DNA of 64,000 nucleotides from an uncultured bacterium. Lineage in GTDB: Bacteria > Desulfobacterota > DSM-4660 > Desulfatiglandales > JALVMZ01. Below the pieces are notes generated by a model. It was given only the letters and a program-made list of their open reading frames with translations. It was not told the DNA's origin and did no database searches. Made by a program: the position numbers and the translations under genes. Of the stretch, positions 20,444 to 59,113 are shown piece by piece (the first letter of the stretch is position 1; every line of letters begins with the position of its first letter). The DNA is taken from positions 80,591 to 144,590 of the forward strand of contig CBFDUE010000001.1 of the NCBI GenBank assembly GCA_965613025.1. The letters are read 5' to 3'.

Positions 20444-20894
20444 TGAAAAGGTCATATGTTATAATAAAAAAGTAGCGCACGACTATGATCTCCATGAGAT
20501 CTATCAGGCAGGCATTGTCTTAAAAGGGCCTGAAGTAAAGAGTCTTAGGCTTGGAAAAGTCTCTCTGGTAGATAGTTACGCTAAGGTTAAAAAAGGTGAA
20601 GTCTTTTTATACAATATGCACATAGGCCCATATCCCTATACCCATCATACACATCTTGACCCCCGCAGACCCAGAAAGCTTCTGCTACATAAAAAAGAGA
20701 TCAAGAGACTGATTGGCAAGACCGAAGAGAGGGGGTTTACACTCATACCGGTGAGGCTCTACTTTAAGAATGGATGGGTAAAGGTGGATATCGCACTTGC
20801 CAAAGGAAAGAGGAAGGTGGACAAGAGAAGGGAGATAAAGGAGAGGGAATTAAAAAGGGAGATGGAATATTATAGAAAGAAGGGTTATTATTGA
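20436..20894 (+). CDS. smpB: SsrA-binding protein SmpB
   Basis: 152 aa. NKKVAHDY...GIVLKGPEVKSLR...RPRKLLLHKKEI. Directly upstream of the tmRNA. Confidence 0.95.
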   Translation: MDNEKVICYNKKVAHDYDLHEIYQAGIVLKGPEVKSLRLGKVSLVDSYAKVKKGEVFLYNMHIGPYPYTHHTHLDPRRPRKLLLHKKEIKRLIGKTEERGFTLIPVRLYFKNGWVKVDIALAKGKRKVDKRREIKERELKREMEYYRKKGYY

Positions 20895-20936
20895 CATAAC
20901 TTATTTGAGAAATTAAAATAAGATATAGATCTTTGA

Positions 20937-21295
20937 GGGGGCGTAACGGGTTCGACGGGGACAATTGAGGTTTAAGCTGCATGCCGAGTGCCATCTCCTC
21001 GTAATGAGATGGGTTTAACACAGATGCCGATGATTATGCATATGCTGTAGCCGCATAAAGAAGACGGCTACCGTCCTTCAGATCTTTCCTGCGGGTCTGA
21101 AAGGGCGTCGTTTAGCAGGATAGTCAACCTGAAATACCTGTGGTTCAGGTTGATGAAGGCTCTTCACAGGTTAGCGTTCGGAATATCCTGCCCGATGGAT
21201 CGTCCGAGCGCGAAAAATTTTAAAATCGGGCTAAGCATGTAGATGCTTAGGCTGAAGGTTCCCGGACGAGGGTTCGACTCCCTCCGCCTCCACCA
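20937..21295 (+). ncRNA. ssrA: tmRNA (SsrA)
   Basis: The 5' end is GGGGGCGTAACGGGTTCGACGGGG. The 3' T-arm is GAGGGTTCGACTCCCTC followed by CGCCTCCACCA. The acceptor stem includes a G3:U pair. The tag frame GCC GAT GAT TAT GCA TAT GCT GTA GCC GCA TAA (21026-21058) encodes ADDYAYAVAA*. Confidence 0.9.
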
Positions 21296-21442
21296 TAAAG
21301 ATGCAATAATTTCAACCTCTCTTCTATTTTCCAAAACTGATATCACAAAGAACCACTTTTTAGCACCGTTTTAAATTTATCTGTATATCTTTTCTCTTTT
21401 ATAGTATAAAAATTAGATTATCTTAATGGTATACTTTAATGT

Positions 21443-21937
21443 ATGGAAGATAAGACACTGATGAGAAGAGCTATTGAACTTATTAATAATTGTTATACAA
21501 TGACACTTGCAGTTTCAAACAAGAGGAAAGCATGGGCAACACCTGTCTATTATCTTTTTCACAAAGGGAATTTTTTCTTTTTCTCATCACCTAAATCCAG
21601 ACATATTGTTGATGGAATGGGTTGTTATGAAGTAGGAGCTTCCATATATCAAGACTCGCATTCCTGGCAAGAGATTAGAGGGATTCAAATGGCAGGAAAA
21701 ATCGAAATGATTAAGAATCCTTTATTAATAAATGAGGTATTTAAAAAATATCTAAAAAAATTTCCAACCACAAAGGAACTTATTCCTCTTTCTGTAAAAG
21801 ATATTACTGCCTTTTTAAAAAATTTTAGGGTCAAACTTTATTGTTTTATACCTATCATCATATATTACTTAGACAATGAGGTATACTTTGGATTCAGAAA
21901 AGAGATTAATCTTAATGAATTTTCATCCTTAAAATAA
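21443..21937 (+). CDS. Possible pyridoxamine-5'-phosphate-oxidase-like (FMN-binding split barrel) protein
   Basis: 164 aa. AIELINNCYTMTLAV...ATPVYYLF...FFFFSSPKSRH resembles the general PNPOx-like pattern. Weak call. Confidence 0.4.
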   Translation: MEDKTLMRRAIELINNCYTMTLAVSNKRKAWATPVYYLFHKGNFFFFSSPKSRHIVDGMGCYEVGASIYQDSHSWQEIRGIQMAGKIEMIKNPLLINEVFKKYLKKFPTTKELIPLSVKDITAFLKNFRVKLYCFIPIIIYYLDNEVYFGFRKEINLNEFSSLK

Positions 21938-22013
21938 TAGCATGAGAAAGATCGAAAAACATATGCTAAAAGGGATATTTATTACCTATAACATGTCATA
22001 AAACAACACAAAT

Positions 22014-22049
22014 TAAAAAGGCCAACCTAAAAGAAGGTTGGCCTTTTTA
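22014..22049. terminator. Bidirectional rho-independent terminator between convergent genes
   Basis: AAAAA-GGCCAACC-TAAAAGAA-GGTTGGCC-TTTTT: a perfect 8-bp GC-rich stem flanked by an A-run and a T-run. Confidence 0.8.
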
Positions 22050-22070
22050 TAAAGATTCTTTTGAGAAATT

Positions 22071-23717
22071 CTATTTAATAGGTTTTTCTTCCAGCTGTTT
22101 TTTAAGGACCTTTTTGTCAATCTTACCAGAGTCACCCACAGTGGGAAGCTGATCCACCACTTCCAATCTCTCTGGAAGCTTATACATGGCAAGCTTTTTA
22201 GACTTTAAAAAATCTACCATCTCATCAAAGGTGAAAGTCTCACCAGGTTTTGGAACCACAAAGGCACACGCTCTCTCTCCCATCTCTTTATCGGGATACC
22301 CCACGATGGCCACACTTGCCACTTTGGGATGTTCATTTAAAAGACCTTCAATTTCTGCAGGATAGATATTCTGCCCTCCCCTTATTATCATATCCTTGGC
22401 TCTTCCCATAATCAGAAGGCATCCCTGCTCCCATCTGACGATATCCCCAGTGGTTGCCCATCCCTCTGGATCAAAGACCGTGCTGGTTAGCTCCTCATCT
22501 CTGTAATATCCGGCAGGACTATGAGGTCCTCTAAACCAAAGTTGACCTGGTTCCCCCTCTGGAACCTCCTTTCCGTCTTCATCTAAAAGTCTGACTCTGT
22601 TACCTGGAAGCGGCCTTCCTACAGTTCTTCTTCTAAGCTCTGGAGGATCTTCCACCCTGCAACCTGATATGGATCCCACATCCTGGGTTCCAAGGTCACT
22701 GGTAATCACAGCACCAAATGCGGCTTCTGCCTCCTGTGCCAATTGGGGAGATAGATATCCACCCGCAGATCTAATAAATCTAAGTGAACTCATATCATAT
22801 TTATCAACCCCTGCATCCAGCATTCTTACAAGATGAGTTGGCACTACTCCGATTGCAGTGGCCTTTTCCTTTTCAATAAGCTCCAATGCCCCTTCAGGAC
22901 TGAACTCTTCGAGCATCACTGTCTTTGCTCCTACCACAGGAGCTGCAAAATAGGTAAGGGTTCCCGCTGCCCCTCCTGCATGGGGTGCGATGGCCATGGT
23001 GATATCATCCTTGGTTAGGCTCCATATATCCACCCTTGCCTTTGAGGTGCAGAGCCTGGGGGCTATAGGCCATTCCACCAGCTTTGGTAGTCCCGTGGTC
23101 CCTGTGGTAGTGGTGAGGATTGCCACATTCCAAAGGGGGTCCAGCCTTCTTTTTTGTAATTCTTCAAGATCTATGTCCTTTTCTGCCCTTTCCTTTGCCA
23201 TGGTGGTAAGGGAATAGGTATCAGATGGGGCACCTTCTGGAACTGTATCATCAAACAGGAATATGTATTTCAAAGACTTAAATCTCTCTTTTAGCCCCCT
23301 ATACATCTCAAGATAGTTGAATTTTCTGTATATACTTGGAATTACAACAGCAGTTGCCTCTGTTCTTTCGACCATATATTCCAGTTCTCTTTCCCTTAGA
23401 TATGGATATACCGTAAGGGAGATGAGGCCTGCTCTTTCTGCTGCTATTCTGGATAAAAACCCATAAACGCTATTAGGAGATTGGATTATTATTCTTGAAA
23501 ATTTAGGTATTCCCATCTCAACCCAGAGCATAGCGATTGCATCTGCAAGCCTCTTCGCCTCGGCCCAGGTGACCCTGTATCGGGAGTCCACCAGCGCCTC
23601 TCTATCTCCCAGCTCTTTTGCATTTCTTTCATAGAAATCAAAAAAGGTCTCCTGGGTCCAATATCCATCCTTTAAAAATTCATTTACCATCTTCTCTGTA
23701 TATCTTATGGGCTTCAT
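22071..23717 (-). CDS. AMP-forming aryl/alicyclic-acid CoA ligase (EntE/AliA-like adenylating enzyme)
   Basis: 548 aa. The N-terminus (EFLKDGYWTQETFFDFYERNA...) is like EntE and cyclohexanecarboxylate-CoA ligase. AMP-binding motif TTTTGTTGLPKLV, plus GWATTGD and a C-terminal lysine region. Confidence 0.8.
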   Translation of the reverse strand: MKPIRYTEKMVNEFLKDGYWTQETFFDFYERNAKELGDREALVDSRYRVTWAEAKRLADAIAMLWVEMGIPKFSRIIIQSPNSVYGFLSRIAAERAGLISLTVYPYLRERELEYMVERTEATAVVIPSIYRKFNYLEMYRGLKERFKSLKYIFLFDDTVPEGAPSDTYSLTTMAKERAEKDIDLEELQKRRLDPLWNVAILTTTTGTTGLPKLVEWPIAPRLCTSKARVDIWSLTKDDITMAIAPHAGGAAGTLTYFAAPVVGAKTVMLEEFSPEGALELIEKEKATAIGVVPTHLVRMLDAGVDKYDMSSLRFIRSAGGYLSPQLAQEAEAAFGAVITSDLGTQDVGSISGCRVEDPPELRRRTVGRPLPGNRVRLLDEDGKEVPEGEPGQLWFRGPHSPAGYYRDEELTSTVFDPEGWATTGDIVRWEQGCLLIMGRAKDMIIRGGQNIYPAEIEGLLNEHPKVASVAIVGYPDKEMGERACAFVVPKPGETFTFDEMVDFLKSKKLAMYKLPERLEVVDQLPTVGDSGKIDKKVLKKQLEEKPIK

Positions 23718-23744
23718 ATAGTGCCTCCCAATGTAATTTTTTTG

Positions 23745-25148
23745 TTAATCAAGGCCAAGCTCCTTCCACCTGCCCTCGATCCTCTTTACAATTTCAGGGT
23801 CAAGTTCTATAGGAATTGGTTTCTCCTTCCATTCATAGGGGATAGTTGCATCAATAAGGAGTCTTCCAGTGATTTCCCTTGCCTCAATGGGTAGAGATGG
23901 GTCAAGGGGGGTAGATCTTCCTCTTCTAATGATCTCACATCTATTAGGTTGAGCCCTGAATGCCAAAGCATATAGGACCCTTGGAATATCCCAAGGATCA
24001 ATATCATCATCAACCACAATTACTGTCTTAAGTCCATAAGCGCCCATCTCTGTGGATATGGCAGCGGTGAGCACCTGATTAGCATGTCCAGGATACATGG
24101 TTTTAACAGATATGATGGCAATAAATCTACCGGCTCCTTCAGGAGGGCAATATACGGCCTTAATCCCTGGAATCTTCATGGCAGTTAGCTGCTGCCAAAG
24201 GGTTGCGCCATAGGTAAGTGCCATGGTCATGTGGGTGTCAGTTACGGCCCTTCCCACGGTTGTTGCCTGAAATATGGGATTATTTCTGAAAGTAACACAC
24301 TTTACCTCAATATAGTTTCGTGGGGTGGTGCCAATTCCTGAATAATAGCCTGTATATTCACCAAAAGGGCCTTCTGGCATCGTCTTTTCAGGATCCACTA
24401 TTCCTTCAACCACAATCTCAGCCGTGGCAGGGACAGGTAGATCACAAGTTTCACATTTTACTACCTCAATGGGCTTCCCCCTTATGGAGCCAGCAAGATC
24501 ATACTCACATTCAAAGGCAGATACTCTGGCCGCGCCCATCAAAAAGAGCAGAGGATCCCCACCAATTACTACTGCCACAGGCATGGGTTTTCCCAATGCC
24601 TGATATTTCTTAAGCATGATATCTGCATGTTTTCCTTTAATAAATTGAGTTCCAAGTGTATTTTTATTTAGCAACTGCAATCTATATGTCCCTAAGTTGA
24701 CCCAATCGCTATCAGGATCTTTTGTCACCACAAAATGGGCAGTTCCAAAATATCTTCCCCCGTCTTTGGGATAGAATTTAGGGACAGGGAACTTGAACAG
24801 ATCCACTTCATCCCCTTCCATCTTGTTCTCCTTACATGGCCCATTATCTACCCAAGCAGGCGGGATCTTCTGCTCATTCTTTTCCACCCACAGTCTCATA
24901 AGATCCACAAGGTTAGAGTCCAATGGAATTCCCATAATAAAAGAGAGTCGCTCAGTGGTAGTATAGACACTAGTTAAAACCGGAGAATTATAGCCCTTAA
25001 CATTCTCAAACAGCAGTGCTGGCCCACCTCTCTCTTCATTGAGTTTGGCAATATGGGAGAGCTCCAGATCCCAGTCTACTTCTGCCTTAATCCTTTTAAG
25101 AAGCCCCCTGCTTTCTGCCTGCTCTATAAACTCCCTCAGGTCCTTCAT
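23745..25148 (-). CDS. UbiD-family (prFMN-dependent) (de)carboxylase
   Basis: 467 aa. MKDLREFIEQAESRGLLKRIKAEVDWDLELSHIAKL...GGPALLFENVKGY is a typical UbiD N-terminus. It lies 27 nt upstream of the ligase gene. Confidence 0.85.
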   Translation of the reverse strand: MKDLREFIEQAESRGLLKRIKAEVDWDLELSHIAKLNEERGGPALLFENVKGYNSPVLTSVYTTTERLSFIMGIPLDSNLVDLMRLWVEKNEQKIPPAWVDNGPCKENKMEGDEVDLFKFPVPKFYPKDGGRYFGTAHFVVTKDPDSDWVNLGTYRLQLLNKNTLGTQFIKGKHADIMLKKYQALGKPMPVAVVIGGDPLLFLMGAARVSAFECEYDLAGSIRGKPIEVVKCETCDLPVPATAEIVVEGIVDPEKTMPEGPFGEYTGYYSGIGTTPRNYIEVKCVTFRNNPIFQATTVGRAVTDTHMTMALTYGATLWQQLTAMKIPGIKAVYCPPEGAGRFIAIISVKTMYPGHANQVLTAAISTEMGAYGLKTVIVVDDDIDPWDIPRVLYALAFRAQPNRCEIIRRGRSTPLDPSLPIEAREITGRLLIDATIPYEWKEKPIPIELDPEIVKRIEGRWKELGLD

Positions 25149-25221
25149 ATATGCCCTCCTTTCTTCAAAAATGATTATACTTTTTGAAATAAAATTTTAT
25201 TGAATTGTCAAAATAAAAAAT

Positions 25222-25250
25222 GTTAATAGCAATTTACAAAAAGTTAATAG
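25222..25250. promoter_or_regulatory. Candidate operator: two GTTAATAG direct repeats 21 nt apart in the UbiD/LysR divergent spacer
   Basis: GTTAATAG at 25222-25229 and 25243-25250. The AT palindrome AATAAAATTTTATT at 25188-25201 is nearby. AT-rich context, so significance is low. Confidence 0.25.
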
Positions 25251-25260
25251 GCAAAAGATC

Positions 25261-26190
25261 ATGATTCTTAATATGAATCAATTAAGGGCATTTTATCTTG
25301 CGGCAAAGCTAAGAAGTATTGCAAAGGCAGCGCAGGAGCTTATGGTAACACCTCCGGCGGTAAGCAAACAGATCAGACAGCTTGAAGAATCCTTGGGGCT
25401 TAAATTACTTTACAGAGATGGGAATTCCATAAAGCTAACGGAGATAGGGAATTCCATATTTAAGAGGAGCAAAGATATATTTGGAAAGATAGAGGAGATG
25501 GAAAGCTACTTTGAGGACCTAACCACTGCAAAGACAGGAGAGCTTAGGATAGGTTGCACACAGACACCTGCAAAGTATATAATGCCAGCGCTGATAGCCA
25601 GATTTAAGGATAACTATCCAGGGATTAAGATAGTGCTGGATCAGGGGACCAGCTCAGAGATGATCCATAATATCTTAAATAATATCAATGAGCTCGCGCT
25701 TATGCGTTATAGGCCCAATGAAAAGAGGCTAAAGGTAAAGGTGATAAGGGAGGAGGAATTGATTCTGATTGCTGCAAGACACAGCAGGCACATAAATACA
25801 AAAGAGATATCCATATCAGAGCTTTCCTACATACCCCTTATTGTCCCCAAGGAAGGTTCAGGGATCAGGGATGCTATCTTTGAATATCTTTCAAAGTTCA
25901 AGATAAGACCCAATGTGGGTATGGAATCAGGAAGTGTGGATCTGATAAAGGAGATGGTTCGTCAGGATAAGGGGGTGAGTTTCCTGGAAAGATATGTGGT
26001 GGAAGAAGAGCTTAAAAGAGGATTTCTTAAGGCAGTGGGGATACTCGAAGGTTCTCCTAAGATTGAACTTGGAGTCGGATACCTTCAAAGGAGACACCTC
26101 TCTCCGCCTGCATGGGCCTTTTTAAGGATGCTTGAAAACCTTAAAAATTCCATCTCCTTAAATTTAGATGAAAAACAGAGGAAGGGATAA
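25261..26190 (+). CDS. LysR-family transcriptional regulator (paralog 1)
   Basis: 309 aa. wHTH N-terminus MNQLRAFYLAAKLRSIAKAAQELMVTPPAVSKQIRQLE. Divergent from the UbiD-ligase operon. Confidence 0.9.
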   Translation: MILNMNQLRAFYLAAKLRSIAKAAQELMVTPPAVSKQIRQLEESLGLKLLYRDGNSIKLTEIGNSIFKRSKDIFGKIEEMESYFEDLTTAKTGELRIGCTQTPAKYIMPALIARFKDNYPGIKIVLDQGTSSEMIHNILNNINELALMRYRPNEKRLKVKVIREEELILIAARHSRHINTKEISISELSYIPLIVPKEGSGIRDAIFEYLSKFKIRPNVGMESGSVDLIKEMVRQDKGVSFLERYVVEEELKRGFLKAVGILEGSPKIELGVGYLQRRHLSPPAWAFLRMLENLKNSISLNLDEKQRKG

Positions 26191-26193
26191 TTT

Positions 26194-27396
26194 ATGAAGA
26201 ATTCAGATAGATTTATAGTGATAATAGGAACATTTGATAGCAAAGGCAGAGAACACCAATTTTTAAAAGAGGCCGTGGAAAAGAGAGGATTTAAAACCTA
26301 CAGCATAAATGTGGGAACAGGTGCACCTTCTACCTTTCCATGTGATAGGGATCTATTTGAAGAACTGTTTAGGAAAAGACCACAAGATCGGGATCTTGCA
26401 ATAAAAAAGAGTATGGAGAAGGCCATAGAGATCCTAAAAGACCTCCAAAAAGAGCAGAGAATTGCCGGGATTATATCCGCTGGAGGAGGAACTGGAACCC
26501 ATATTTCCACAACCATTATGAGTTCCTTACCTGTAGGAGTTCCCAAAGTTATGGTATCCACAGTGGCATCTAAAAATATGAAAGAGATAGTGGGCACAAA
26601 GGACATAACCATGATACACAGTGTGACTGACATACTGGGTATAAACAGTATTCTGGGAAGGATCTTGGATATGGCAGCAGGCGCAGTCTGTGGAATGGCT
26701 GAGCCCAAATGGAATCCCAGATCAGATAAAAAAAGGATTGCGCTTACCATGTTTGGATTTATAGATAGTGGTGCTCATAAGATAAAGGATTGTCTGGAAG
26801 ATATGGAATATGAGGTGGTGGCGTTTCATGCAAATGGAACAGGTGGAATGGCCATGGAAGCACTAGCAAGGGATGGGTTTTTTGATGCCATCTTAGATCT
26901 TGCTACCCATGAGCTTGCTGATGAGCTATTGAAAGGTTATTGTAGTGGCATAGGGCCAGAGAGATTAGATCCTCCCTCAGAAAATCCTATACCAAGGCTT
27001 GTGGTTCCAGGGGGGTTAGATTGTGCTGTGCTTGAATTTACAAGGAAAAATATCCCTTCCATATACAGAGATAGAAAGATATTTTTCTATGATTTTAGAT
27101 CTGGAATCAGATTAAATGAAGATGAGACAAGGGCTGTGGCACAATGGCTTTCAGAAAAATTGAACAAGGCTCCCAATCACACTAAGATTCTTATTCCATT
27201 AAAAGGATGGTCAGAGGCGGATCGTGAAGGAGGCCCATTATATGATCCCAAGATGAGGGATATATTCATCAGCACGCTTAAAGAGAGGCTAAATCCAGTA
27301 ATTGAGATAATTGAGGTTGAATTTCATATAAATGATGATGGATTTGCTCGCCTTGCATCTGATATTATGATCCATATGATGGAAGGGAAGAGATGA
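26194..27396 (+). CDS. UPF0261 family protein (Tm-1-like ATP-binding domain), copy 1
   Basis: 400 aa. FIVIIGTFDSKGREHQFLKEAVEKRG..., GIISAGGGTGTHIST and PKVMVSTVAS fit my memory of UPF0261/PF06792. It starts 3 nt after LysR-1 and overlaps LysR-2 by ATGA. Confidence 0.7.
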   Translation: MKNSDRFIVIIGTFDSKGREHQFLKEAVEKRGFKTYSINVGTGAPSTFPCDRDLFEELFRKRPQDRDLAIKKSMEKAIEILKDLQKEQRIAGIISAGGGTGTHISTTIMSSLPVGVPKVMVSTVASKNMKEIVGTKDITMIHSVTDILGINSILGRILDMAAGAVCGMAEPKWNPRSDKKRIALTMFGFIDSGAHKIKDCLEDMEYEVVAFHANGTGGMAMEALARDGFFDAILDLATHELADELLKGYCSGIGPERLDPPSENPIPRLVVPGGLDCAVLEFTRKNIPSIYRDRKIFFYDFRSGIRLNEDETRAVAQWLSEKLNKAPNHTKILIPLKGWSEADREGGPLYDPKMRDIFISTLKERLNPVIEIIEVEFHINDDGFARLASDIMIHMMEGKR

Positions 27397-28298
27397 TAAA
27401 TCTGAATCAGCTTAGAGCATTTTATTGGAGCGCAAGGCATCTAAGCTTTACTAAGGCTGCAAAAGAACTATATGTATCTCAGCCTGCCATTACCACACAG
27501 ATCAGGCTCTTTGAGAAAGATCTGCAACTACAGCTTTTTAGAAGAAAGAGAGGAGGGAAGCTAATTCTTACAAGGGAAGGTGCGAGGCTATTTGAGTATG
27601 CGAAAAAGATATTTGAATATGAAGAGAGGCTGGAAGAGGTGATTGAAGATATAAGAAAATTAAAAGATAGAATTCTTCATATTGGAAGCGGAAGGAGCTA
27701 TGCCCATTATTTTGTTCCTTCCCTTATAGAATATTTCCATAAGGACCATCCTGAAATAAAGATAAAGGTTGAGGAAGGGAATTCACAAGATCTCATAAAT
27801 GGCCTCATTGAGATGAAAAATGAGGTGGCAATAGTATCTAAGGTGCTCGAACTTCCTGATATTAGATATGAGCTATTTAGTATGAAGGAGATCATTCCCA
27901 TTGTTCATATTTCACATCCCCTATTGAAGAAGAGATTCGTTAGCTTTCATGAGCTGGCACAAGAACCTATAATAATGAAAGAATCAGGGTCTGGGACAAG
28001 ATGGGTTGTGGAGGACCTTTTTAAGAGATATGGCTATGTGCCAAAGATAATAATGGAGGCAAGTGATGTGGAGATCATTAAGAGCATGGTGGAGCAGGGA
28101 AATGGGATTTCCTTTTTATTGTATGAGGCAGTAAAGAAAGATATCCAAAATAAGAGGATTGCAAGACTTCCCCTTAAAGGGCAAAAGATATATCTGGATA
28201 TAACCATTGCCTACCTCAAGGATCAGATTACCTTTCCTACCAAAGCGTTTCTTGACTGTATTAAAAGGATAAAAGAGGTCTCTGATTTCCATGTTTAA
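27393..28298 (+). CDS. LysR-family transcriptional regulator (paralog 2)
   Basis: 301 aa. MINLNQLRAFYWSARHLSFTKAAKELYVSQPAITTQIRLFE. Its start overlaps the UPF0261 stop (ATGA, 27393-27396). Confidence 0.9.
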   Translation: MINLNQLRAFYWSARHLSFTKAAKELYVSQPAITTQIRLFEKDLQLQLFRRKRGGKLILTREGARLFEYAKKIFEYEERLEEVIEDIRKLKDRILHIGSGRSYAHYFVPSLIEYFHKDHPEIKIKVEEGNSQDLINGLIEMKNEVAIVSKVLELPDIRYELFSMKEIIPIVHISHPLLKKRFVSFHELAQEPIIMKESGSGTRWVVEDLFKRYGYVPKIIMEASDVEIIKSMVEQGNGISFLLYEAVKKDIQNKRIARLPLKGQKIYLDITIAYLKDQITFPTKAFLDCIKRIKEVSDFHV

Positions 28299-28334
28299 TA
28301 ATAGAAGACATTACCATAAAAAGTTATAAAAAAT

Positions 28335-28349
28335 TCTTATTTCTTAAGA
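28335..28349. promoter_or_regulatory. Candidate LysR-type box TCTTA-N5-TAAGA upstream of the bis-MGD enzyme gene
   Basis: 15-nt dyad TCTTATTTCTTAAGA about 80-90 nt upstream of ATG 28428. Confidence 0.3.
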
Positions 28350-28427
28350 CAATTTATTTTCCTTGAATAATCCTTGATTGAAGCTCTAAAGTGTAAAATA
28401 TATCTACATCCTTAAAGGAGGATTATT

Positions 28428-30647
28428 ATGGAAAGGGAATATAAAGATGCAGAGGTAAAGAGATCCATGTGTTTCTGGTGCAAGCCCAGATGTATTTTGG
28501 ATGTGTATGTTAAGGATGGAAGGCTGCTTGGTGTAAGCAAATCCCCTATAAAAGGATGTCCCAGATGGAAGATAGCAAAGGAGATATTTTATAGTCCTAC
28601 CAGAACCACCTTTCCTATGAAGAGAGTTGGAGAGAGAGGAGAAAATAGATGGAAACAGATATCCTGGGATCAGGCCTTAGATGAGATAGCGGAGAGGCTT
28701 TCATCCATAAGGGATAGATATGGTGCAGAGGCTGTGGCACATCAGCACGGAACCAGCAGATCTTATGAAGAACTCCGAACTCGCTTTTTCAACCTCTTTG
28801 GAAGTCCAAATCACTTCGGCCAGGCACACATCTGTCATGGAAATTCCGCAGTGGTGGCATGTATGGTGTTGGGATGGTGGCCATATTGGATGAATGTGGA
28901 AAAGCTGGAGAAGGCAAATTGTATCTTCTTTGTAGGTCGAAATCCTATTCCGAGTCATCAGACAATAAGGGATGGCGTAGAGCAGGCCAGGAAGAGGGGG
29001 GCGACAGTTATTGTGGCAGATCCCAGACCATCTGATATAGTGAAGCATGCAGACATCTGGTTGAGATTGAGACCAGGTACAGATGCTGCACTTCTGCTTT
29101 CAATGATGAATGTAATTGTGAACGAGGATCTTTATGATAAAGAGTTTGTAAATAATTGGACATATGGTTTTGATAAGTTAAGCGATAGGCTAAAGGAATA
29201 TCCCCCAAGTAGAGGTGCTGAGATAACTGGTTTAAAAGAAGAAGATATTATAAAGGCAGCCAGGATTTATGCAACAAAAAGACCCTCATGTATGATGGAA
29301 GGAATGGGTGTTGCACATCAGCCCAATTCTCTAAATGCGCTACTCTGTCGCTATCTTATGCCTGCTTTAGTTGGCATGATAGATGTGGAAGGGGGAGAGG
29401 AGCTAATGGGCCCAGCTCCCATAATTACAGAACATGAGATTGAGCTTCCCGATATCCTTCCTGCTGAGCAGGCACAAAAAATGATAGGAAGTCAATATAG
29501 GCTATATTCCCATGAGGGATATGAGCTGATCCAGAAAAATGTGGAAAGGGTATGGGGTAAAAGATGTGATCTTCAGGTGTATATGAGATGTGCATCTGCC
29601 CCCCTTATCTTTCATGCGATGGCATATGGGGAGCCCTACCCTATAAAGGGTCTGATATGTGTCGCATGTAATCCCATGCTTACCATGCCAAATATAAAAC
29701 TGGTATATAAGGCATTAAAAAATTTAGAGCTTTTAGTGGTAGTGGATAAGGTCTGGACTCCCACTGCTCAGCTTGCAGACTATGTGCTACCAGCAGCAGA
29801 CTGGTTAGAGAGGGATTTTATATTTAATTACCATAATACCACTCCATTGATTATTGCAGGAGAGGCGGCCCTTCCAAAGACCATCACAGGGGAGTATGAC
29901 AGAAGGGATGATTTTGACTTCTGGAGAGGATTGGGAATAAGGCTTGGACAAAAGGAATATTGGCCTTGGGAAAGTGTTCGGGAATATTATGATTATAGAC
30001 TAAGGCCCATAGGACTGAGTTTTAAAGAGCTGGTTCAAATGGGCAAGTGGTTTCCTGAAAAGAGAGAATTTAAAAAATACATAAATAAAGGTTTTGGAAC
30101 ACCTACGGGCAAGGTGGAATTCTATTCTACAATACTAGAAAAACTGGGGTATGATCCACTTCCCAAGTTTGAGGAACCACCTGAAAGTCCCATAAGCAGT
30201 CCAGAACTTGCGAAGGAATATCCTCTTATTCTTATTACAGGTGGTAGATTTTTACCCTATTTCCATTCAGAATTCAGGAATATCCAGACCTTCAGAAAGG
30301 CCTATCCCTATCCCCAGGTGGAGATACATCCTGAAACTGCTAAAAACTATGGAATAGAAGAGGGAGACTGGGTCTGGATTGAGACACCACGAGGTAGGAT
30401 AGTTCAGAGATGCAGATTGGTGGACGAGATAGACCCAAAAGTTGTCCATGCCCAGCATGGCTGGTGGTATCCTGAACTTCCTCCAGAGGAGCCTTGGCTT
30501 CATGGAGTCTGGATATCCAATGTGAATGTGCTGACTGAAAAGGATCCAGATAAGGGTATAGATAAGGCATTAGGATCTTGGCCACTCAGGACCATGCTAT
30601 GCAGGATATATAAGGCCCGGGTATCAGATATTCCATTATTTTATTAA
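28428..30647 (+). CDS. Cytoplasmic bis-MGD (Mo/W) enzyme of the acetylene-hydratase-like clade, unknown substrate
   Basis: 739 aa. N-terminal [4Fe-4S] motif C15-x2-C18-x3-C22...C44 and no twin-arginine signal. Long stretches match my recollection of Pelobacter acetylenicus acetylene hydratase (RWKQISWDQALDEIAERL; ADIWLRLRPGTDAALLLSMMNVIVNEDLYDKEFVNNW; TPTAQLADYVLPAADWLER; GKVEFYSTILEKLGYDPLP...PELAKEYPLILITG). The metal-ligand Cys (C136 in HICHGNS) is conserved, but the catalytic Asp after the second Cys is Lys19. Confidence 0.75.
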   Translation: MEREYKDAEVKRSMCFWCKPRCILDVYVKDGRLLGVSKSPIKGCPRWKIAKEIFYSPTRTTFPMKRVGERGENRWKQISWDQALDEIAERLSSIRDRYGAEAVAHQHGTSRSYEELRTRFFNLFGSPNHFGQAHICHGNSAVVACMVLGWWPYWMNVEKLEKANCIFFVGRNPIPSHQTIRDGVEQARKRGATVIVADPRPSDIVKHADIWLRLRPGTDAALLLSMMNVIVNEDLYDKEFVNNWTYGFDKLSDRLKEYPPSRGAEITGLKEEDIIKAARIYATKRPSCMMEGMGVAHQPNSLNALLCRYLMPALVGMIDVEGGEELMGPAPIITEHEIELPDILPAEQAQKMIGSQYRLYSHEGYELIQKNVERVWGKRCDLQVYMRCASAPLIFHAMAYGEPYPIKGLICVACNPMLTMPNIKLVYKALKNLELLVVVDKVWTPTAQLADYVLPAADWLERDFIFNYHNTTPLIIAGEAALPKTITGEYDRRDDFDFWRGLGIRLGQKEYWPWESVREYYDYRLRPIGLSFKELVQMGKWFPEKREFKKYINKGFGTPTGKVEFYSTILEKLGYDPLPKFEEPPESPISSPELAKEYPLILITGGRFLPYFHSEFRNIQTFRKAYPYPQVEIHPETAKNYGIEEGDWVWIETPRGRIVQRCRLVDEIDPKVVHAQHGWWYPELPPEEPWLHGVWISNVNVLTEKDPDKGIDKALGSWPLRTMLCRIYKARVSDIPLFY

Positions 30648-31606
30648 GGGATGGAAACGGCAGGGAGGTTATTATCTAAATAGGATATAAGTTCACGAAT
30701 GCCATAGCCAGGTCTGAGTCCCTGGGCCATCTGTTTTAGCATTTCTAAGAATCTGGTTGCAGCAATAGAGAGGGGTTGGGTCTTTAGATAGGCAATGGAT
30801 ATATCTAAAAACAGCCTTTTACCCTCTAGGGGTCTGCTCTTTAAGACCCCTTTTTTTAACTCCTTATAAACTGCATCTTTCACCACAAAGGATATCCCAT
30901 TTCCTTGCTTTACAAGCTGTTTTATAAACTCAGTGTTACTGGTTTCCATAAGTATATTAGGGGTTATCCCTTTTTCGCTAAAGAGCCTGTCCACAATCTT
31001 TCTGGTTCCTGAACCTTCCTCCTTCATAATCAGGGGATAATCCATAAGCTCTTCAATCGATACCTCCTTTTCCTTTGTAAGAGGATGTCCTGGAGGAAGT
31101 ATAAGGATCAACTCTTCATGGGCAAAAGGGATGACCTCGATATCAGGATAGTTTTCAACCATTGCAATTATCCCAATCTCATTTTTTAAATCAAGGAGAC
31201 TGAGAAGGATATCTTTTGAGCTTCCTTCATTTAGAAAGATCTTTATCCCTGGATATCTACATCTAAAGTTCTGAACAATGTATGGCATAAAAAACCTGGC
31301 ATATGTTTTGGTGGTTCCTATTCTTAGAAGCCCTCTTTTTAACTTTTGAAGCTCTTCAATGGTATTTTCAATCTCTCTTTCAAATTCAAATACCTTTTTT
31401 GCAAGGTCAAAGAGAACCCTTCCTTCATCAGTAAGATGAATCCTTCTGCCCCTCTTTTTAAATAGCTTAAAACCACAGAATTTTTCAAATATCTTCAATT
31501 GGGCTGTAACAGCAGGCTGGGTAATAAAGAGATTTTTAGCGGCCTTGGTGCAGCTCATATACCTTGCGGTTTCATAAAAGATCCTGAGATGATTAAAGTT
31601 GATCAT
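30644..31606 (-). CDS. LysR-family transcriptional regulator (paralog 3)
   Basis: 320 aa. MINFNHLRIFYETARYMSCTKAAKNLFITQPAVTAQLKIFE, closest to paralog 2. Its stop codon overlaps the stop of the convergent bis-MGD gene. Divergent from the Pps-like operon. Confidence 0.9.
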   Translation of the reverse strand: MINFNHLRIFYETARYMSCTKAAKNLFITQPAVTAQLKIFEKFCGFKLFKKRGRRIHLTDEGRVLFDLAKKVFEFEREIENTIEELQKLKRGLLRIGTTKTYARFFMPYIVQNFRCRYPGIKIFLNEGSSKDILLSLLDLKNEIGIIAMVENYPDIEVIPFAHEELILILPPGHPLTKEKEVSIEELMDYPLIMKEEGSGTRKIVDRLFSEKGITPNILMETSNTEFIKQLVKQGNGISFVVKDAVYKELKKGVLKSRPLEGKRLFLDISIAYLKTQPLSIAATRFLEMLKQMAQGLRPGYGIRELISYLDNNLPAVSIP

Positions 31607-31636
31607 CCTAAATTACTCAATTCTTAACAATTTTAA

Positions 31637-31651
31637 TTATCTATAAGATAA
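31637..31651. promoter_or_regulatory. Candidate LysR operator: perfect 15-nt palindrome TTATCTATAAGATAA
   Basis: Located 31 nt upstream of the LysR-3 start, in the 216-nt divergent spacer. ATAAATAAAAT direct repeats at 31648-31658 and 31693-31703. A weak TTGACA-17-TTATGT at 31708-31736 faces the Pps-like operon. Confidence 0.35.
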
Positions 31652-31822
31652 ATAAAATAAATAATTTTCCATAATCTCAATTTATAAATAGCATAAATAA
31701 AATGCAATTGACAAGATCTTTTATGCATCTTTATGTTTCTTAAAAAATATCTTAAAAGGTCCTAATAAATCCTGTTCAAATGTTGGTCAAACCATTAACC
31801 CATCAAAAGAAAGGAGGAAGAG

Positions 31823-33676
31823 ATGAAAGAAAGAGGCAAATTCCCTGACCCCCACGAATTTAAAACTCCCCCAGAGCTGGATGGATGGGAGGAGATGTAT
31901 CCTTCCCATTACCTCTTTTCAAAGGACAGGGAGGAGTGGGAAAAGAGACAATTCTGGTATCAGGATAAGATCCATGATCCTGAGCCCTTGCCTCCTTTAG
32001 ATCTCATATTTCAAGAGGCATGGCAGATATCCCTTTCTCAGTATACCACAAGGGTATTCTGTATCCCTCCGGCACAGGGAATAGCACAGCGTATGGTAGG
32101 ATGTTACATGTATATCTGTGCTATAAACCCTCCACCAGAAGAGGTAATCGGTAAAAAGGCTCAGCTATTTGAAAAGAGGGTATTTCATGTCTTTAAGAAC
32201 TATGATGAGCTGTGGGACAAGTGGTTAGAGAAGTTCAAGAAATTGGGAGAGGAGATGGACAGCCTCCCTGTTCCCAAAGAGTTGCCTGAATTTGTTCCAG
32301 AAGATCAGGTCCTTCCTGCTCCCACTGGCTGCTATGTATCCTACGACCTTATGGAGGCATTTGATAAACTGGTAAATATGATGTTTAAGGGATGGCAATA
32401 TCACTTTGAAATGCTCAATCTCTCCTATCTTGCATACCTTATGTTTGCAGATGTGGCCAGAAGGCTCTTCCCTGGAATTAGTGAAAGTGCCATAGGAAAG
32501 ATGGTGGCAGGTGCCTATGTTGCCATGTTTAAACCAGAAGAAGAGCTATGCAGGCTCTCCCGTCTTGCCACATCCCTTAAAGGTGTCGCTGATATATTGA
32601 AATCAGACATGAAAGTGGAAGAGAAGATCTCTCAGCTTCAGCAGAGTGATGATGGAAAACAGTGGCTTGAGGAATATGAAAAGGCAAAGGATCCATGGTT
32701 CTATGTTTCCAATGGAAGCGGATGGTTTCATTATGAAGGAAGCTGGATCACACATCCTGAAATCCCCTTTGGCTATATCAAGAGCTACATAGAGAGATTG
32801 GGAAAAGGTGAAAAGATAGAAAGATCACTGGAAGATATAGAAAAGGAAAGGGAAAGGGTGCTGGAGGAGTATAGAAAACTCATAAAGAATGAGGAAGATA
32901 GAAAATCTTTTGATGACTCATACAATATCATAAGGACCATATATCGATTTGCAGAGGATCATCTGTTCTGGGTTGAGCACTGGTTCCACACCATCTGGTT
33001 TAAGAAGGTCAGGGAATTTGGCCAGCTACTTGTAAAATATGACATGTTAAATGAGGTGGACGATATCTTTATGTTCAACAGGTATGAGATCCCACAGCTA
33101 CTCACTGAGCTTTCCACTGCCTGGGCACTTGGAGTGGATGTTCCTGTAAGAGCAAGCTACTATAAAGGAAAGGCGGAAAAGAGAAGGAGGATCCTGGAAG
33201 CTGCCAGGCAATGGAATCCACCGCCTGCCCTGGGTGTTCCACCTGAAGAGGTGGCAGAACCTTTCACTGTGATGCTATGGGGAATCACGACAGAGAAAGT
33301 AAAGGAATGGCTAAAAGGTGTGGAAGTTCCTGAAGGTGAAGAGGTAAGTGAACTTAAGGGATTTGCGTCCTCCTCTGGTGTTACAGAAGGAAAGGCAAGG
33401 GTGCTCAAGTCCTTAGCAGATCTGGACAAACTTCAGGCAGGAGAGATTATGGTATGTCCTACCACTAACCCATCCTGGGCACCGGTATTTACAAAGATAA
33501 AGGCAGCTGTGACAGACATAGGGGGGCTTACAAGCCATGCTGCTATTGTGTGTCGTGAATATGGGCTTCCAGCTGTTACAGGCTGTGGGATTGCCACATC
33601 TGTTATAAAGACAGGAGATATCATAAAAGTAAATGGTGATGAAGGAGTGGTAACTATTTTGAAGAGAGCCGAGTAG
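31823..33676 (+). CDS. PpsA-like subunit: PEP-utilising-enzyme swivel phospho-His domain protein (phenylphosphate-synthase alpha-like)
   Basis: 617 aa (about 70 kDa). The C-terminus GEIMVCPTTNPSWAPVFTKIKAAVTDIGGLTSHAAIVCREYGLPAV carries the catalytic His (His572, codon 33536-33538). No ATP-grasp/PPDK_N domain in this chain. Confidence 0.7.
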   Translation: MKERGKFPDPHEFKTPPELDGWEEMYPSHYLFSKDREEWEKRQFWYQDKIHDPEPLPPLDLIFQEAWQISLSQYTTRVFCIPPAQGIAQRMVGCYMYICAINPPPEEVIGKKAQLFEKRVFHVFKNYDELWDKWLEKFKKLGEEMDSLPVPKELPEFVPEDQVLPAPTGCYVSYDLMEAFDKLVNMMFKGWQYHFEMLNLSYLAYLMFADVARRLFPGISESAIGKMVAGAYVAMFKPEEELCRLSRLATSLKGVADILKSDMKVEEKISQLQQSDDGKQWLEEYEKAKDPWFYVSNGSGWFHYEGSWITHPEIPFGYIKSYIERLGKGEKIERSLEDIEKERERVLEEYRKLIKNEEDRKSFDDSYNIIRTIYRFAEDHLFWVEHWFHTIWFKKVREFGQLLVKYDMLNEVDDIFMFNRYEIPQLLTELSTAWALGVDVPVRASYYKGKAEKRRRILEAARQWNPPPALGVPPEEVAEPFTVMLWGITTEKVKEWLKGVEVPEGEEVSELKGFASSSGVTEGKARVLKSLADLDKLQAGEIMVCPTTNPSWAPVFTKIKAAVTDIGGLTSHAAIVCREYGLPAVTGCGIATSVIKTGDIIKVNGDEGVVTILKRAE

Positions 33677-33691
33677 GAGGTAAAAGGTGTA

Positions 33692-36530: not shown

Positions 36531-37121
36531 ATGATGAAAAAAAGAATAGTAATTGGGATATCGGGTGCAAGTGGTGTAATTTATGGAATAAGGCTACTTG
36601 AAATTCTAAAAAAGATGGGCTCTTGGGAAACCCATCTTGTAATTACAGAGGCGGCAAAGAAAAATATAGAAATTGAAACAGATTATAGGTTAGAAGATGT
36701 GGAAGAGATGGCATCCTTTTCATACGCCCAGGATGACATGACAGCCCCCATATCCAGTGGTTCCTTTTTAACCGAAGGAATGGTGGTAATACCCTGTGCC
36801 ATAAAGAGTCTATCTGGAATCGCAAACTCCTTTAATACCAATCTGCTGGTGCGTGCAGCAGATGTGACTTTAAAAGAGAAAAGAAGACTGATTCTGGTGG
36901 TAAGAGAGACCCCTCTTCATATGGGACATTTAGAGCTTATGAAGAAGGCCGCTTTAATGGGAGCCATAATCCTGCCTCCCATTCCTTCCTTTTATCATCA
37001 ACCTAAAAGCATACAGGACATAATAGATCATATTATTGGGAAGATTTTGGATCATTTTAAAATAGAGCATCAACTCTATAAGAGATGGTCTGGTGTTAAA
37101 CAGAATAGGTTATCTTCTTAG
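36531..37121 (+). CDS. ubiX: Flavin prenyltransferase UbiX (prFMN synthase)
   Basis: 196 aa. KRIVIGISGASGVIYGIRLLEIL and VIPCAIKSLSGIANSF. Confidence 0.9.
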   Translation: MMKKRIVIGISGASGVIYGIRLLEILKKMGSWETHLVITEAAKKNIEIETDYRLEDVEEMASFSYAQDDMTAPISSGSFLTEGMVVIPCAIKSLSGIANSFNTNLLVRAADVTLKEKRRLILVVRETPLHMGHLELMKKAALMGAIILPPIPSFYHQPKSIQDIIDHIIGKILDHFKIEHQLYKRWSGVKQNRLSS

Positions 37122-38764: not shown

Positions 38765-38790
38765 TTAGGAGGTTTAAAGGAGGAAATGCT

Positions 38791-40731: not shown

Positions 40732-40743
40732 GGAGGAAAAGAA

Positions 40744-58617: not shown

Positions 58618-58622
58618 AGCAC

Positions 58623-59108: not shown

Positions 59109-59113
59109 CCCAC

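Follow-up and report, generated by a model that had tools for sequence, protein, structure and literature searches.

The locus was analysed within a window of 64,000 nucleotides (the whole stretch of DNA), and its genes and features are listed in Table 1. The arrangement given in an earlier note on this DNA was reproduced: the ORFs of a 467-aa UbiD protein and a 548-aa AMP-forming ligase are separated by 27 nt, a LysR-family gene diverges from the pair across a 112-nt spacer, a UbiX gene is located elsewhere in the cluster (about 11 kb from UbiD), and a Pps-like operon, placed there about 7 kb away, was measured at 6.7 kb from the UbiD start. The two-gene UbiD-ligase unit is closed by a hairpin with a T-run, and might be controlled by LysR1. 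The UbiD/LysR1 spacer and the region upstream of ppsA have only three 8-mers in common, a ribosome-binding-site 11-mer aside. LysR1 shares 36% identity with LysR3 and 31% with LysR2, and no close ortholog of it was found in 80 related loci (best match 42%). The G+C content is 0.446-0.457 in the UbiD, ligase, PpsA and PpsB genes vs 0.415 in the whole window.

Table 1. Positions of the UbiD-ligase pair, its control region and other pathway genes in the window
Feature	Position	Strand	Basis or detail
Terminator-like hairpin with T-run, 3' of the ligase gene	22014-22049	-	15-pair stem, 6 G-C pairs
EntE/DhbE-like AMP-forming aryl-acid ligase, 548 aa	22071-23717	-	ORF listing, Pfam
27-nt spacer between UbiD and ligase	23718-23744	-	GGGAGG ribosome-binding site before the ligase ATG
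PpcB-clade UbiD-family (de)carboxylase, 467 aa	23745-25148	-	ORF listing, Pfam
Divergent promoter region UbiD/LysR1, 112 nt, A+T-rich	25149-25260	strandless	sequence read
LysR1, divergent LysR-family regulator	25261-26190	+	Pfam HTH_1, LysR_substrate
PpsA-like (617 aa) and PpsB-like (355 aa), phenylphosphate-synthase-type pair	31823-33676, 33692-34759	+	NF006153; PEP-synthase N-terminal match
UPF0261b (MarK-type kinase family)	34781-36010	+	universal neighbour of the UbiD clade
UbiX flavin prenyltransferase (prFMN supply)	36531-37121	+	NF004685, 265.5 bits vs cut-off 188
Family III CoA-transferase	48801-49952		
Three-subunit XDH-family molybdoenzyme, Hcr-like by context only	56218-59977	-	Pfam
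PaaK-type CoA ligase adjoining TRAP transporter genes	59987-61291	-	Pfam AMP-binding_C_2

The PpsA-like protein matched NF006153 with 886.7 bits, and the PpsB-like protein has a PEP-synthase N-terminal match. They share 42.7% and 52% identity with PpsA and PpsB of Azoarcus, respectively, and the UbiX shares 55% with its Azoarcus counterpart. The genes scanned around the pps pair included none for a CBS-domain PpsC. Kinase activity has been reported for the UPF0261 family (PMC12624787). The locus further encodes two additional members of this kinase family and an acetylene-hydratase-like molybdoenzyme. The subunits of the XDH-like enzyme scored 540.5, 121.6 and 183.3 bits against the alpha, beta and gamma models of 4-hydroxybenzoyl-CoA reductase, all below the cut-offs, as were the scores against the xanthine dehydrogenase models. 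The PaaK-type ligase reached 405.5 bits with TIGR02155 (cut-off 646.3), and shares 32% identity with the AMP-binding protein encoded in the phenol cluster of Azoarcus. A BamA/Oah protein is encoded in the same genome (495.7 bits vs cut-off 464.45).

UbiD protein and its partner subunits

The UbiD protein is composed of the UbiD_N, UbiD and UbiD_C domains (Pfam, core E 1.4e-71). The prFMN UbiD motifs are intact (NLGTYR at 151, GKHA at 172, CEYD at 214 and EGPFGE at 259), and the catalytic residues among them are presumably those corresponding to Fdc1. The NCBI PpcB model (TIGR02724) was passed marginally, about 20 bits over the cut-off (489.6 vs 468.95 bits), and the PpcA model was failed (214.4 vs 564.6 bits). 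The protein shares 48.8% identity with PpcB and 33% with PpcA of Azoarcus KH32C. It is not a UbiD sensu stricto of quinone biosynthesis (NF008175, 257.7 vs 788 bits), the class that the earlier note had named as speaking against a catabolic role, nor a menaquinone (SCO4490-type) decarboxylase (TIGR03701, 299.7 bits vs cut-off 495.9).

A phylogenetic tree was reconstructed from sequences that included PpcB, the phthaloyl-CoA decarboxylase (PCD) genes of EbN1 and E. coli UbiD, with IPCD outside its coverage. The UbiD of the window was located in a clade of 18 rows (SH-aLRT 100), which was nested in a clade of 24 rows with PpcB of Azoarcus KH32C (SH-aLRT 95). The EbN1 PCD genes were placed outside the PpcB clade with a branch length of 1.95, and E. 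coli UbiD was basal. In this tree the protein thus groups with Azoarcus PpcB, and not with PCD or E. coli UbiD.

Only one UbiD gene was found in the genome (PF01977; 2.75-Mb assembly, 98.6% complete), so that the earlier statement of a single UbiD holds genome-wide. A protein search at E <= 1e-10 likewise gave one UbiD, so there is no PpcA-type second subunit. No match to PpcD (TIGR02726) was found in the genome at E <= 0.001, whereas the positive control, ppcD on pAZKH, gave 366 bits. PpcG/PpcC (TIGR02725) was also without a match in the genome, in which an assembly gap could hide such a short gene; the positive control on pAZKH scored 146.3 bits. Among 81 genomes sampled from the order, the UbiD ortholog is present in 34, and 17 of these 34 have no second UbiD. 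As half of the carriers in the sample do without a second UbiD subunit, it cannot be a general requirement. The requirement for two UbiD-like proteins plus small subunits, which the earlier note had stated for phenylphosphate carboxylase, applies to the denitrifier enzyme; it does not extend to the PpcB-type clade of the window, whose UbiD might be homomeric.

Gene order and co-occurrence in relatives

Of the related loci, 68 extend at least 1.5 kb upstream of UbiD; ppsB immediately precedes the UbiD ortholog in 52 of these, and a divergent LysR gene takes this place in 14. Where the upstream sequence reaches 4 kb or more (48 loci), Pps genes were found in 46. Downstream, the usual order is the ligase ortholog, then UPF0261 and UbiX, and often the XDH/Hcr-like reductase. 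For the 55 loci with at least 2.5 kb downstream of UbiD, a ligase ortholog (at least 70% identity) follows within 1.6 kb on the same strand in 37, and a paralog of 47% identity is found instead in six. No EntE-type ligase was found within 6 kb downstream of UbiD in 12 of the 55, so that the UbiD does not strictly depend on it. A UPF0261 gene occurs in every one of the 50 loci that extend 3 kb or more beyond UbiD on the downstream side. XDH/Hcr-like genes were found in 15 of 26 long loci with a type-1 ligase vs none of nine without it, and a PaaK-type ligase is present in three ligase-less loci. In most relatives the UbiD, ligase and Pps genes form one operon, and the window is a split version of that operon. 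Moreover, the ligase (at least 75% identity) is encoded in 22 of the 81 genomes of the order, and all 22 also carry the UbiD ortholog.

The earlier note had considered activation of an acid to its CoA thioester followed by UbiD-type decarboxylation, as in phthalate and isophthalate degradation; the passed PpcB model and a position in the PpcB clade, far from PCD, speak against it. The ligase would then make phthaloyl-, isophthaloyl- or terephthaloyl-CoA, which the UbiD would decarboxylate to benzoyl-CoA, and the Pps operon would be independent. On formal grounds the isophthalate arrangement is matched, a UbiD gene standing beside an AMP-forming ligase gene with UbiX near; in the window the two genes also make up a transcription unit apart, which has a separate LysR and terminator, and the tree does not cover IPCD. 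However, the UbiD scored 56 bits with the solved PCDs (8oz5, 8pmk; best solved relative, 287 bits), the EbN1 PCD branch lies well outside the clade, and the isophthalate ligase IPCL is described as a PaaK-type enzyme of 49.6 kDa (PMC9516798). In most relatives a single operon has ppsB and, right after it, the UbiD gene; the ligase always occurs together with a PpcB-clade UbiD, and no CoA transferase is adjacent; the sole one of family III is 24 kb off, beside haem genes. Decarboxylation to benzoyl-CoA is thus considered highly improbable, and the UbiD may work in the direction of carboxylation.

Ligase and proposed route

The ligase has the AMP-binding and AMP-binding_C domains (Pfam, E 9e-56). 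Its closest solved relatives are salicylate-AMP and 2,3-dihydroxybenzoate (DHB)-AMP ligases (5wm2, 6e8o and 1md9; 251-260 bits). No NCBIfam model was over its cut-off, and the top scores were those of fatty-acid, cyclohexanecarboxylate and DHB-AMP ligase models, the last of which was failed (TIGR02275, 275.4 bits vs cut-off 723.55). The label 'EntE/AliA-like' in the earlier note was therefore a fair one, and the fatty-acyl ligase family, named there as an adverse outcome, is not indicated. Alignment showed that the DhbE pocket residues N235, Y236, S240 and V329 correspond to G249, A250, T253 and D341 of the ligase, which are invariant in all 38 orthologs; N235 and S240 of DhbE are the residues that we take to bind the 2- and 3-hydroxyls. 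This pocket is unlike that of every solved relative, so that even the class of acid is only predicted. The ligase may be a 4-hydroxybenzoate-type CoA ligase, and its acceptor is likely CoA rather than a carrier protein.

The ligase might instead stand outside the pathway, either adenylating an acid for another acceptor or running in reverse (acyl-CoA + AMP + PPi -> ATP) to save energy in an energy-limited anaerobe, in which case 4-hydroxybenzoate would actually be activated by the PaaK-type enzyme. Its aryl-acid adenylating EntE/DhbE neighbourhood and its degenerate A5 motif (LGTQD) could fit this reading, and a PaaK-type ligase is encoded both in the window and in Desulfatiglans anilini. In the D. 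anilini paper, the only one found to mention the ligase, its role is called unknown, and the energy balance of the route is acknowledged to be puzzling (PMC6114531). On the other hand, the window genes scanned included no aryl carrier protein or NRPS gene, and the terminal GK...K segment can be aligned with that of DhbE. The ligase also travels with the XDH/Hcr-like enzyme, for which a CoA ester is required; the PaaK-type ligase in three ligase-less loci also suggests an interchangeable function. A role outside the pathway is regarded as quite unlikely.

The pair is probably, at a moderate level of confidence, a displaced piece of the phenol activation operon of strict anaerobes (Desulfatiglans type). 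The Pps-like pair would phosphorylate phenol or a close phenolic analogue, and prFMN made by UbiX would be loaded into the single PpcB-clade UbiD. The UbiD might carboxylate the aryl phosphate at the para position to give 4-hydroxybenzoate, which the co-transcribed EntE-like ligase would convert with ATP to the CoA thioester; this ligation might also pull the reversible carboxylation forward. The XDH/Hcr-like enzyme could then take off the hydroxyl, and the benzoyl-CoA pathway would follow. The substrates in this scheme are proposed ones. As the D. anilini authors ascribe 4-hydroxybenzoate activation to a PaaK-type ligase and the window also encodes such an enzyme, the EntE-like ligase may duplicate that activity or have a different one. 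The hybrid route of the earlier note, in which a phosphorylated substrate is carboxylated by a single-subunit UbiD and the product is then ligated to CoA, is supported by the comparative genomics, in which one operon combines these genes in most relatives.

The module might also phosphorylate and carboxylate another phenolic or anilinic compound (catechol, hydroquinone, cresol or aniline), the ligase activating the matching substituted benzoate. The pocket unlike those of characterised enzymes, with its invariant Asp at the DhbE V329 position, would suit such a substrate, as would the extra UPF0261 genes and the acetylene-hydratase-like enzyme. Moreover, the D. anilini UbiD 02059 also serves aniline degradation, and recombinant 02059 with a second UbiD subunit, 03872, carboxylated phenylphosphoamidate and not phenylphosphate (PMC7500099). 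However, the growth and induction data for this cluster type concern phenol only (PMC6114531), PpsA and PpsB resemble the denitrifier phenol enzymes at the identities given above, and the aniline-specific synthase of D. anilini shares only about 27% identity with its phenol counterpart (PMC7500099). Another substrate is considered unlikely, and phenol activation remains the preferred reading.

The route itself has already been described in sulfate-reducing bacteria, and the locus is nothing new in kind. What is added here is the single UbiD without PpcD and PpcG, the order-mates without a second UbiD (17/34) and the ligase accompanied by UbiD in 22/22 genomes. How sulfate reducers, iron reducers and syntrophs carboxylate phenol anaerobically has been a standing problem ever since Geobacter and Desulfatiglans were studied: these organisms lack subunits on which the Thauera enzyme depends, and the activity is not known to have been demonstrated in vitro. 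A bolder proposal is held tentatively, at somewhat less than even confidence: in a widespread Desulfobacterota clade, a stand-alone and probably homomeric PpcB-type UbiD would be the aryl-phosphate carboxylase, dispensing with PpcA, PpcD and PpcG. Its constant partners would be the UPF0261 (MarK-type) protein and, in about two thirds of the genomes, a private EntE-like ligase. The latter would represent a third, so far undescribed 4-hydroxybenzoate-CoA ligase family, whose invariant pocket Asp reads the para substituent and which traps the product to drive the unfavourable carboxylation. If true, this would account for the phenylphosphate carboxylase never having been reconstituted from strict anaerobes by Thauera-style assays. 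Pps and UbiX aside, no neighbour but UPF0261 is universal, and the tie of the 'DHB-AMP ligase' to UbiD and the XDH/Hcr-like reductase gives it a concrete, testable role. With its few genes, the set is amenable to expression and reconstitution.

Comparison with known systems

The reference is the phe (pps-ppc) cluster of D. anilini DSM 4660 (H567DRAFT_02049-02059), as described by Xie and Muller 2018 (PMC6114531) and Xie et al. 2020 (PMC7500099). Both share a PpsA/PpsB-like pair, one PpcB-like UbiD with a DHB-AMP-ligase-type gene alongside, UbiX, XDH-family ('CO dehydrogenase') subunits and a PaaK-type ligase, and ppc-gamma is absent. According to PMC6114531, phenol induces both the ppc-beta gene 02059 and its neighbour 02058, a '2,3-dihydroxybenzoate-AMP ligase' gene; the two sit with pps, UbiX and XDH-type genes, and phenylphosphate carboxylase activity was never detected in extracts; phenol induction and phenylphosphate formation are recorded there for the phe-type cluster in D. 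anilini only. Activation of 4-hydroxybenzoate was assigned by the D. anilini authors to a PaaK-type ligase. The match to 02058 and 02059 is one of gene order, IMG product names and similar identity to the denitrifier proteins (48.8% for the UbiD of the window vs 49% for D. anilini), not of sequence comparison. Seven related loci (L043, L045, L047, L048, L050, L060 and L065), the divergent-LysR loci with long downstream sequence, have the published phe order: LysR / UbiD-ligase-UPF0261-XDH genes-PpsA-PpsB. In contrast, the set in the window is scattered over 40 kb, and UbiD and ligase stand apart as a unit of two genes, which has a separate LysR and terminator. The UbiD paralogs 03563 and 03872 of D. 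anilini have no counterpart in the genome of the window.

PpcABCD of Thauera and Azoarcus was compared using plasmid pAZKH of Azoarcus sp. KH32C (L084). The UbiD belongs to the PpcB clade, ppsA and ppsB precede UbiD in relatives, and UbiX is present; whereas the PpcA-type second UbiD, the PpcD phosphatase and PpcG are missing from the genome. The EntE-like ligase and UPF0261 genes occupy the place of these subunits in the operon.

For phthaloyl-CoA decarboxylase, plasmid 2 of A. aromaticum EbN1 (L085) and the structures 8oz5 and 8pmk were used. As in PCD and in IPCL/IPCD of Syntrophorhabdus aromaticivorans, the UbiD, UbiX and a CoA-activating enzyme of an anaerobic aromatic degrader are encoded together. 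PCD belongs to another UbiD clade, and its adjacent CoA transferase is absent at the pair; IPCL is PaaK-like (PMC9516798), whereas the 548-aa ligase is EntE-like. The order of reactions is probably reversed relative to both systems, with carboxylation followed by ligation. The best solved relatives of the ligase are DhbE, EntE and salicylate-AMP ligase (1md9, 6e8o and 5wm2), which align over nearly the full length; however, its identity to named relatives is only about 31-33%.

Layout of the UbiD and ligase genes

The window (G000:C1:80591-144590, where G000 is its own genome) belongs to an assembly of 2.75 Mb that is 98.6% complete. The ORF listing and the Pfam matches placed the UbiD gene and the adjoining ligase gene exactly where the earlier note had put them.

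Features of the UbiD-ligase unit and of the related genes in the window
Feature	Position	Strand	Details
UbiD-family protein	23745-25148	-	467 aa; ORF listing; Pfam UbiD_N, UbiD, UbiD_C
AMP-binding + AMP-binding_C protein (ligase)	22071-23717	-	548 aa; ORF listing, Pfam
UbiD-ligase gap	27 nt	-	contains a GGGAGG ribosome-binding site
Hairpin with T-run	22049-22014	-	15 pairs; end of the UbiD-ligase unit
LysR1	25261-26190	+	divergent; 112 A+T-rich nt separate it from UbiD
UbiX	36531-37121		
PpsA-like/PpsB-like pair	31823-34759		

The promoter scan revealed 11 sites against a mean of 11.8 in shuffled sequence, that is, no excess. The ribosome-binding-site context of 11 nt (AAGAAAGGAGG) is identical before the start codons of UbiD (25138-25148) and the PpsA-like gene (31813-31823). 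No operator common to the two upstream regions was apparent: they share only three 8-mers beyond this 11-mer, their longest common word.

Just past the ligase terminator lies a 164-aa ORF (21443-21937, +) with a very low G+C of 0.30. It has a weak YhbP family match (37.5 bits), and shares 26% identity over 155 aa (E 2e-19) with the pyridoxamine-5'-phosphate-oxidase-family gene of the Azoarcus phenol cluster. Three of the 80 related loci have homologs of this ORF, possibly a small flavoprotein that recurs in phenol clusters.

Family assignment of the UbiD and the ligase

The UbiD passed only two NCBIfam models, the generic UbiD subfamily and TIGR02724, an equivalog model of the phenylphosphate carboxylase subunit beta; the latter pass was narrow (489.6 bits, cut-off 468.95). 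The PpcA model scored 214.4 bits (cut-off 564.6), and the pairwise identity was 48.8% with the Azoarcus PpcB and 33% with PpcA. Among the top ten UbiD cluster representatives in the NCBIfam scans, P0121 alone passed the PpcB model. The motifs NLGTYR (151), GKHA (172), CEYD (214) and EGPFGE (259) are present; by analogy with Fdc1, they presumably hold the ligands of the metal and the catalytic Glu-Arg-Glu residues, and the UbiD therefore looks catalytically competent.

Other functions within the family were rejected. The models of the E. coli-type UbiD sensu stricto (257.7, cut-off 788) and the menaquinone decarboxylase (299.7, cut-off 495.9) scored far under their cut-offs. For a VdcCD-type phenolic acid decarboxylase, the VdcC model reached 335.1 against 650, and the 27-nt gap is too small for a small-subunit gene. 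The best match among solved structures was 7pda (287 bits), followed by the E. coli UbiD (236 bits), 7ae4 (227 bits), Fdc1 (about 154 bits) and the AroY-type enzymes (about 142 bits). The entry 7ae4 was deposited as 'phenolic acid decarboxylase', and we take it to be the B. subtilis VdcC. The entry 7pda is cited in a paper on the phenazine-1-carboxylate decarboxylase PhdA (PMC10850782). The phthaloyl-CoA decarboxylase structures 8oz5 and 8pmk matched with only 56 bits. IPCL, which activates isophthalate, belongs to the PaaK-type ligases and has a mass of 49.6 kDa (PMC9516798). With the phthaloyl-CoA enzyme as the decarboxylase for comparison, the phthalate/isophthalate logic was rejected for the pair.

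A maximum likelihood tree (LG+G4, 'quick' method, SH-aLRT support only) was reconstructed from 101 rows: the window UbiD, 17 of the 81 ortholog ORFs (taken at every fifth rank of identity), 75 of the 129 full-length cluster representatives (ids up to P0205), one locus paralog and seven anchors. The named anchors were obtained by tblastn of plasmid records, including the complete ppsABC-ppcBDAG-ubiD-ubiX cluster of Azoarcus sp. KH32C and the UbiX-UbiD-CoA-transferase phthalate cluster on plasmid 2 of A. aromaticum EbN1, together with the E. coli ubiD. They cover only PpcA, PpcB, the ORF7-like UbiD, the phthaloyl-CoA decarboxylase (PCD), a third EbN1 UbiD and the E. coli UbiD. The window clade formed a single group (SH-aLRT 100), nested together with the Azoarcus PpcB in a clade of 24 rows (SH-aLRT 95). 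PpcA and the ORF7-like UbiD were clustered in other clades, the E. coli UbiD was near the base, and the EbN1 PCD genes had a branch length of 1.95. One related locus (L056, 4072-7070) has two UbiD genes in a row, the ortholog (77%) and then one of 53% identity to the window protein, which pairs with the Azoarcus PpcB in the tree (SH-aLRT 99). This tandem is a possible intermediate between the one-UbiD and two-UbiD carboxylases.

No NCBIfam model reached its cut-off with the ligase. The scores were 300.9 for the long-chain fatty-acid ligase (cut-off 476), 295.4 for the medium-chain one (736), 293.1 for the cyclohexanecarboxylate ligase (792.3) and 275.4 for the DHB-AMP ligase (723.55). Its closest solved relatives are aryl-acid adenylating enzymes, namely the salicylate-AMP ligase 5wm2 (260 bits) and the DHB-AMP ligases 6e8o (258 bits) and 1md9 (251 bits), and its named plasmid-borne relatives share at most 34% identity. 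The label 'EntE/AliA-like' chosen earlier is therefore fair, for a subfamily of its own. The protein atlas gave generic AMP-binding clusters only.

In DhbE, the residues N235, Y236, S240 and V329 presumably line the dihydroxybenzoate pocket. The HMMER alignment showed that these correspond to G249, A250, T253 and D341 of the ligase, whose A5 motif is LGTQD. With these four positions changed, the ligase was rejected as a DHB or salicylate activator. All four residues are unchanged in 38 of 38 full-length orthologs, and the D341 position is Thr in all five aligned paralogs of 47% identity. An Asp conserved at the bottom of the pocket would fit a substrate with a polar group in the para position.

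Operon context in related loci and genomes

With one genome scanned per species, relatives turned up in 391 species. The 80 best-matching loci (75-85% identity) were kept, nearly all from Desulfobacterota MAGs (Desulfatiglandales, Desulfobacterales and Syntrophorhabdaceae), and the window proteins were mapped onto them. Twelve loci had less than 1.5 kb upstream and were excluded; in the remaining 68, the UbiD ortholog was directly preceded by a same-strand ppsB in 52, by a divergent LysR in 14 and by something else in 2. Of the 55 loci that extend 2.5 kb or more downstream of UbiD, 37 have a same-strand ligase ortholog (at least 70% identity) within 1.6 kb. The two genes are either direct neighbours, 15-254 nt apart, or separated by a receiver-domain gene, with gaps of about 555-740 nt. 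The other 18 loci include 6 with a ligase paralog of 47% identity and 12 without an EntE-type ligase within 6 kb, 3 of which contain a PaaK-type ligase. Where the downstream stretch measured 3 kb or more (50 loci), a UPF0261 gene was always present; where the upstream one measured 4 kb or more (48 loci), 46 had Pps genes. Of the long loci, 15 of the 26 carrying the type-1 ligase also have XDH/Hcr-like genes, whereas none of the 9 lacking it does. One UPF0261 member has been characterised, the aromatic hydroxyl kinase MarK (PMC12624787).

According to these neighbour counts, the commonest operon is LysR(-) / ppsA-ppsB-ubiD-(receiver)-ligase-UPF0261-ubiX-XDH subunits, and a second form is LysR(-) / ubiD-ligase-UPF0261-XDH subunits-ppsA-ppsB. 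Since the nearest relatives of the window, L019 (85%) and L022 (84%), have the first form, parsimony suggests that its layout is best read as a rearrangement. The ubiD-ligase unit would have been lifted from between ppsB and UPF0261b, the MarK-type kinase-family gene downstream of the Pps pair, and then set down inverted beside another LysR. Both halves of the split operon have the same G+C (0.446-0.457, versus 0.415 for the window). The stretch 20800-32000 contains no flanking repeats that would account for the displacement. An AOR-family gene (38791-40731, within 37981-41247) is conserved at 79-83% near the pps-ubiD operon in L014, L039, L070 and L080, and in the first two it stands beside an IclR gene (51-55%). 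An aldehyde step may be part of the same catabolic island.

The gene content was also compared across a sample of the order (81 genomes, with G000 among them); the counts are descriptive, as kin are non-independent and some genomes incomplete. With a threshold of 70% identity, 34 of the 81 have an ortholog of UbiD (in some cases partial), and 17 of these carriers show no further UbiD-family protein at E <= 1e-10. The orthologs seen in the order are 72-85% identical. The ligase (at least 75% identity) was found in 22 genomes, every one among the 34. A 48% ligase paralog occurs in 9 genomes, including 7 of the UbiD carriers, and one more lies beside a 55% UbiD paralog; 5 carriers have neither ligase type. 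The sole other genome of the same genus (93% complete) has neither UbiD nor ligase, and the module is therefore accessory.

Sister UbiDs of 50-55% identity often occur in arrays of three consecutive genes (G005:C28, G035:C33, G036:C185 and G068:C85), whose members are about 55%, 35% and 30% identical to the query; the window clade is typically solitary. In G024, a genome of the same order, 20 UbiD-family proteins matched; none exceeds 42% identity to the query, and many lie in clusters. Our guess is that it may specialise in the carboxylation of polycyclic aromatics. G000 itself has 29 AMP-binding family matches in 2.75 Mb, a number of acyl/aryl-CoA ligases that is unusually high for its size.

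Probable placement in an anaerobic phenol route

It is reasonably probable that the pair belongs to the known phenol route of strict anaerobes. In this route, phenol would be phosphorylated by a Pps-type kinase, and the single PpcB-clade prFMN carboxylase would then produce 4-hydroxybenzoate. The co-transcribed EntE-like ligase would form the CoA ester, an XDH/Hcr-like enzyme would dehydroxylate it, and the benzoyl-CoA pathway would take over. The earlier note had given prominence to CoA ligation followed by decarboxylation; the supported order is the opposite, carboxylation and then ligation, which corresponds to the 'hybrid' option that the note named last.

The PpcD and PpcG models had no match in the own genome, and the same models find both genes on the Azoarcus plasmid. 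BamA/Oah scored above the cut-off in G000, which also has six AOR-family genes. An XDH-family enzyme of three subunits is encoded at 56218-59977 (-), next to a PaaK-type ligase and a TRAP transporter. It scored about equally with the models of xanthine dehydrogenase and of 4-hydroxybenzoyl-CoA reductase; the enzyme is under every curated cut-off, and its role therefore rests on context.

A full-text search of the accessible literature for the ligase name with phenol terms gave nothing beyond PMC6114531. According to that report (Xie and Muller 2018), the D. anilini cluster 02049-02059 contains pps-alpha, pps-beta, one ppc-beta (02059), UbiX (02056) and medium and small subunits of the CO-dehydrogenase type, with no ppc-gamma. 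Its PaaK-type ligase was proposed as the 4-hydroxybenzoate ligase; phenylphosphate synthase activity was detected, whereas carboxylase activity was not. A later report showed that 02059 combined with a second UbiD (03872) carboxylates phenylphosphoamidate in vitro, whereas phenylphosphate was not carboxylated (Xie et al. 2020, PMC7500099). Many members of the ligase family have the JGI product name '2,3-dihydroxybenzoate-AMP ligase', as does 02058 of D. anilini. Judging by gene order and product names, the window's ligase and UbiD are probably orthologous to 02058 and 02059.
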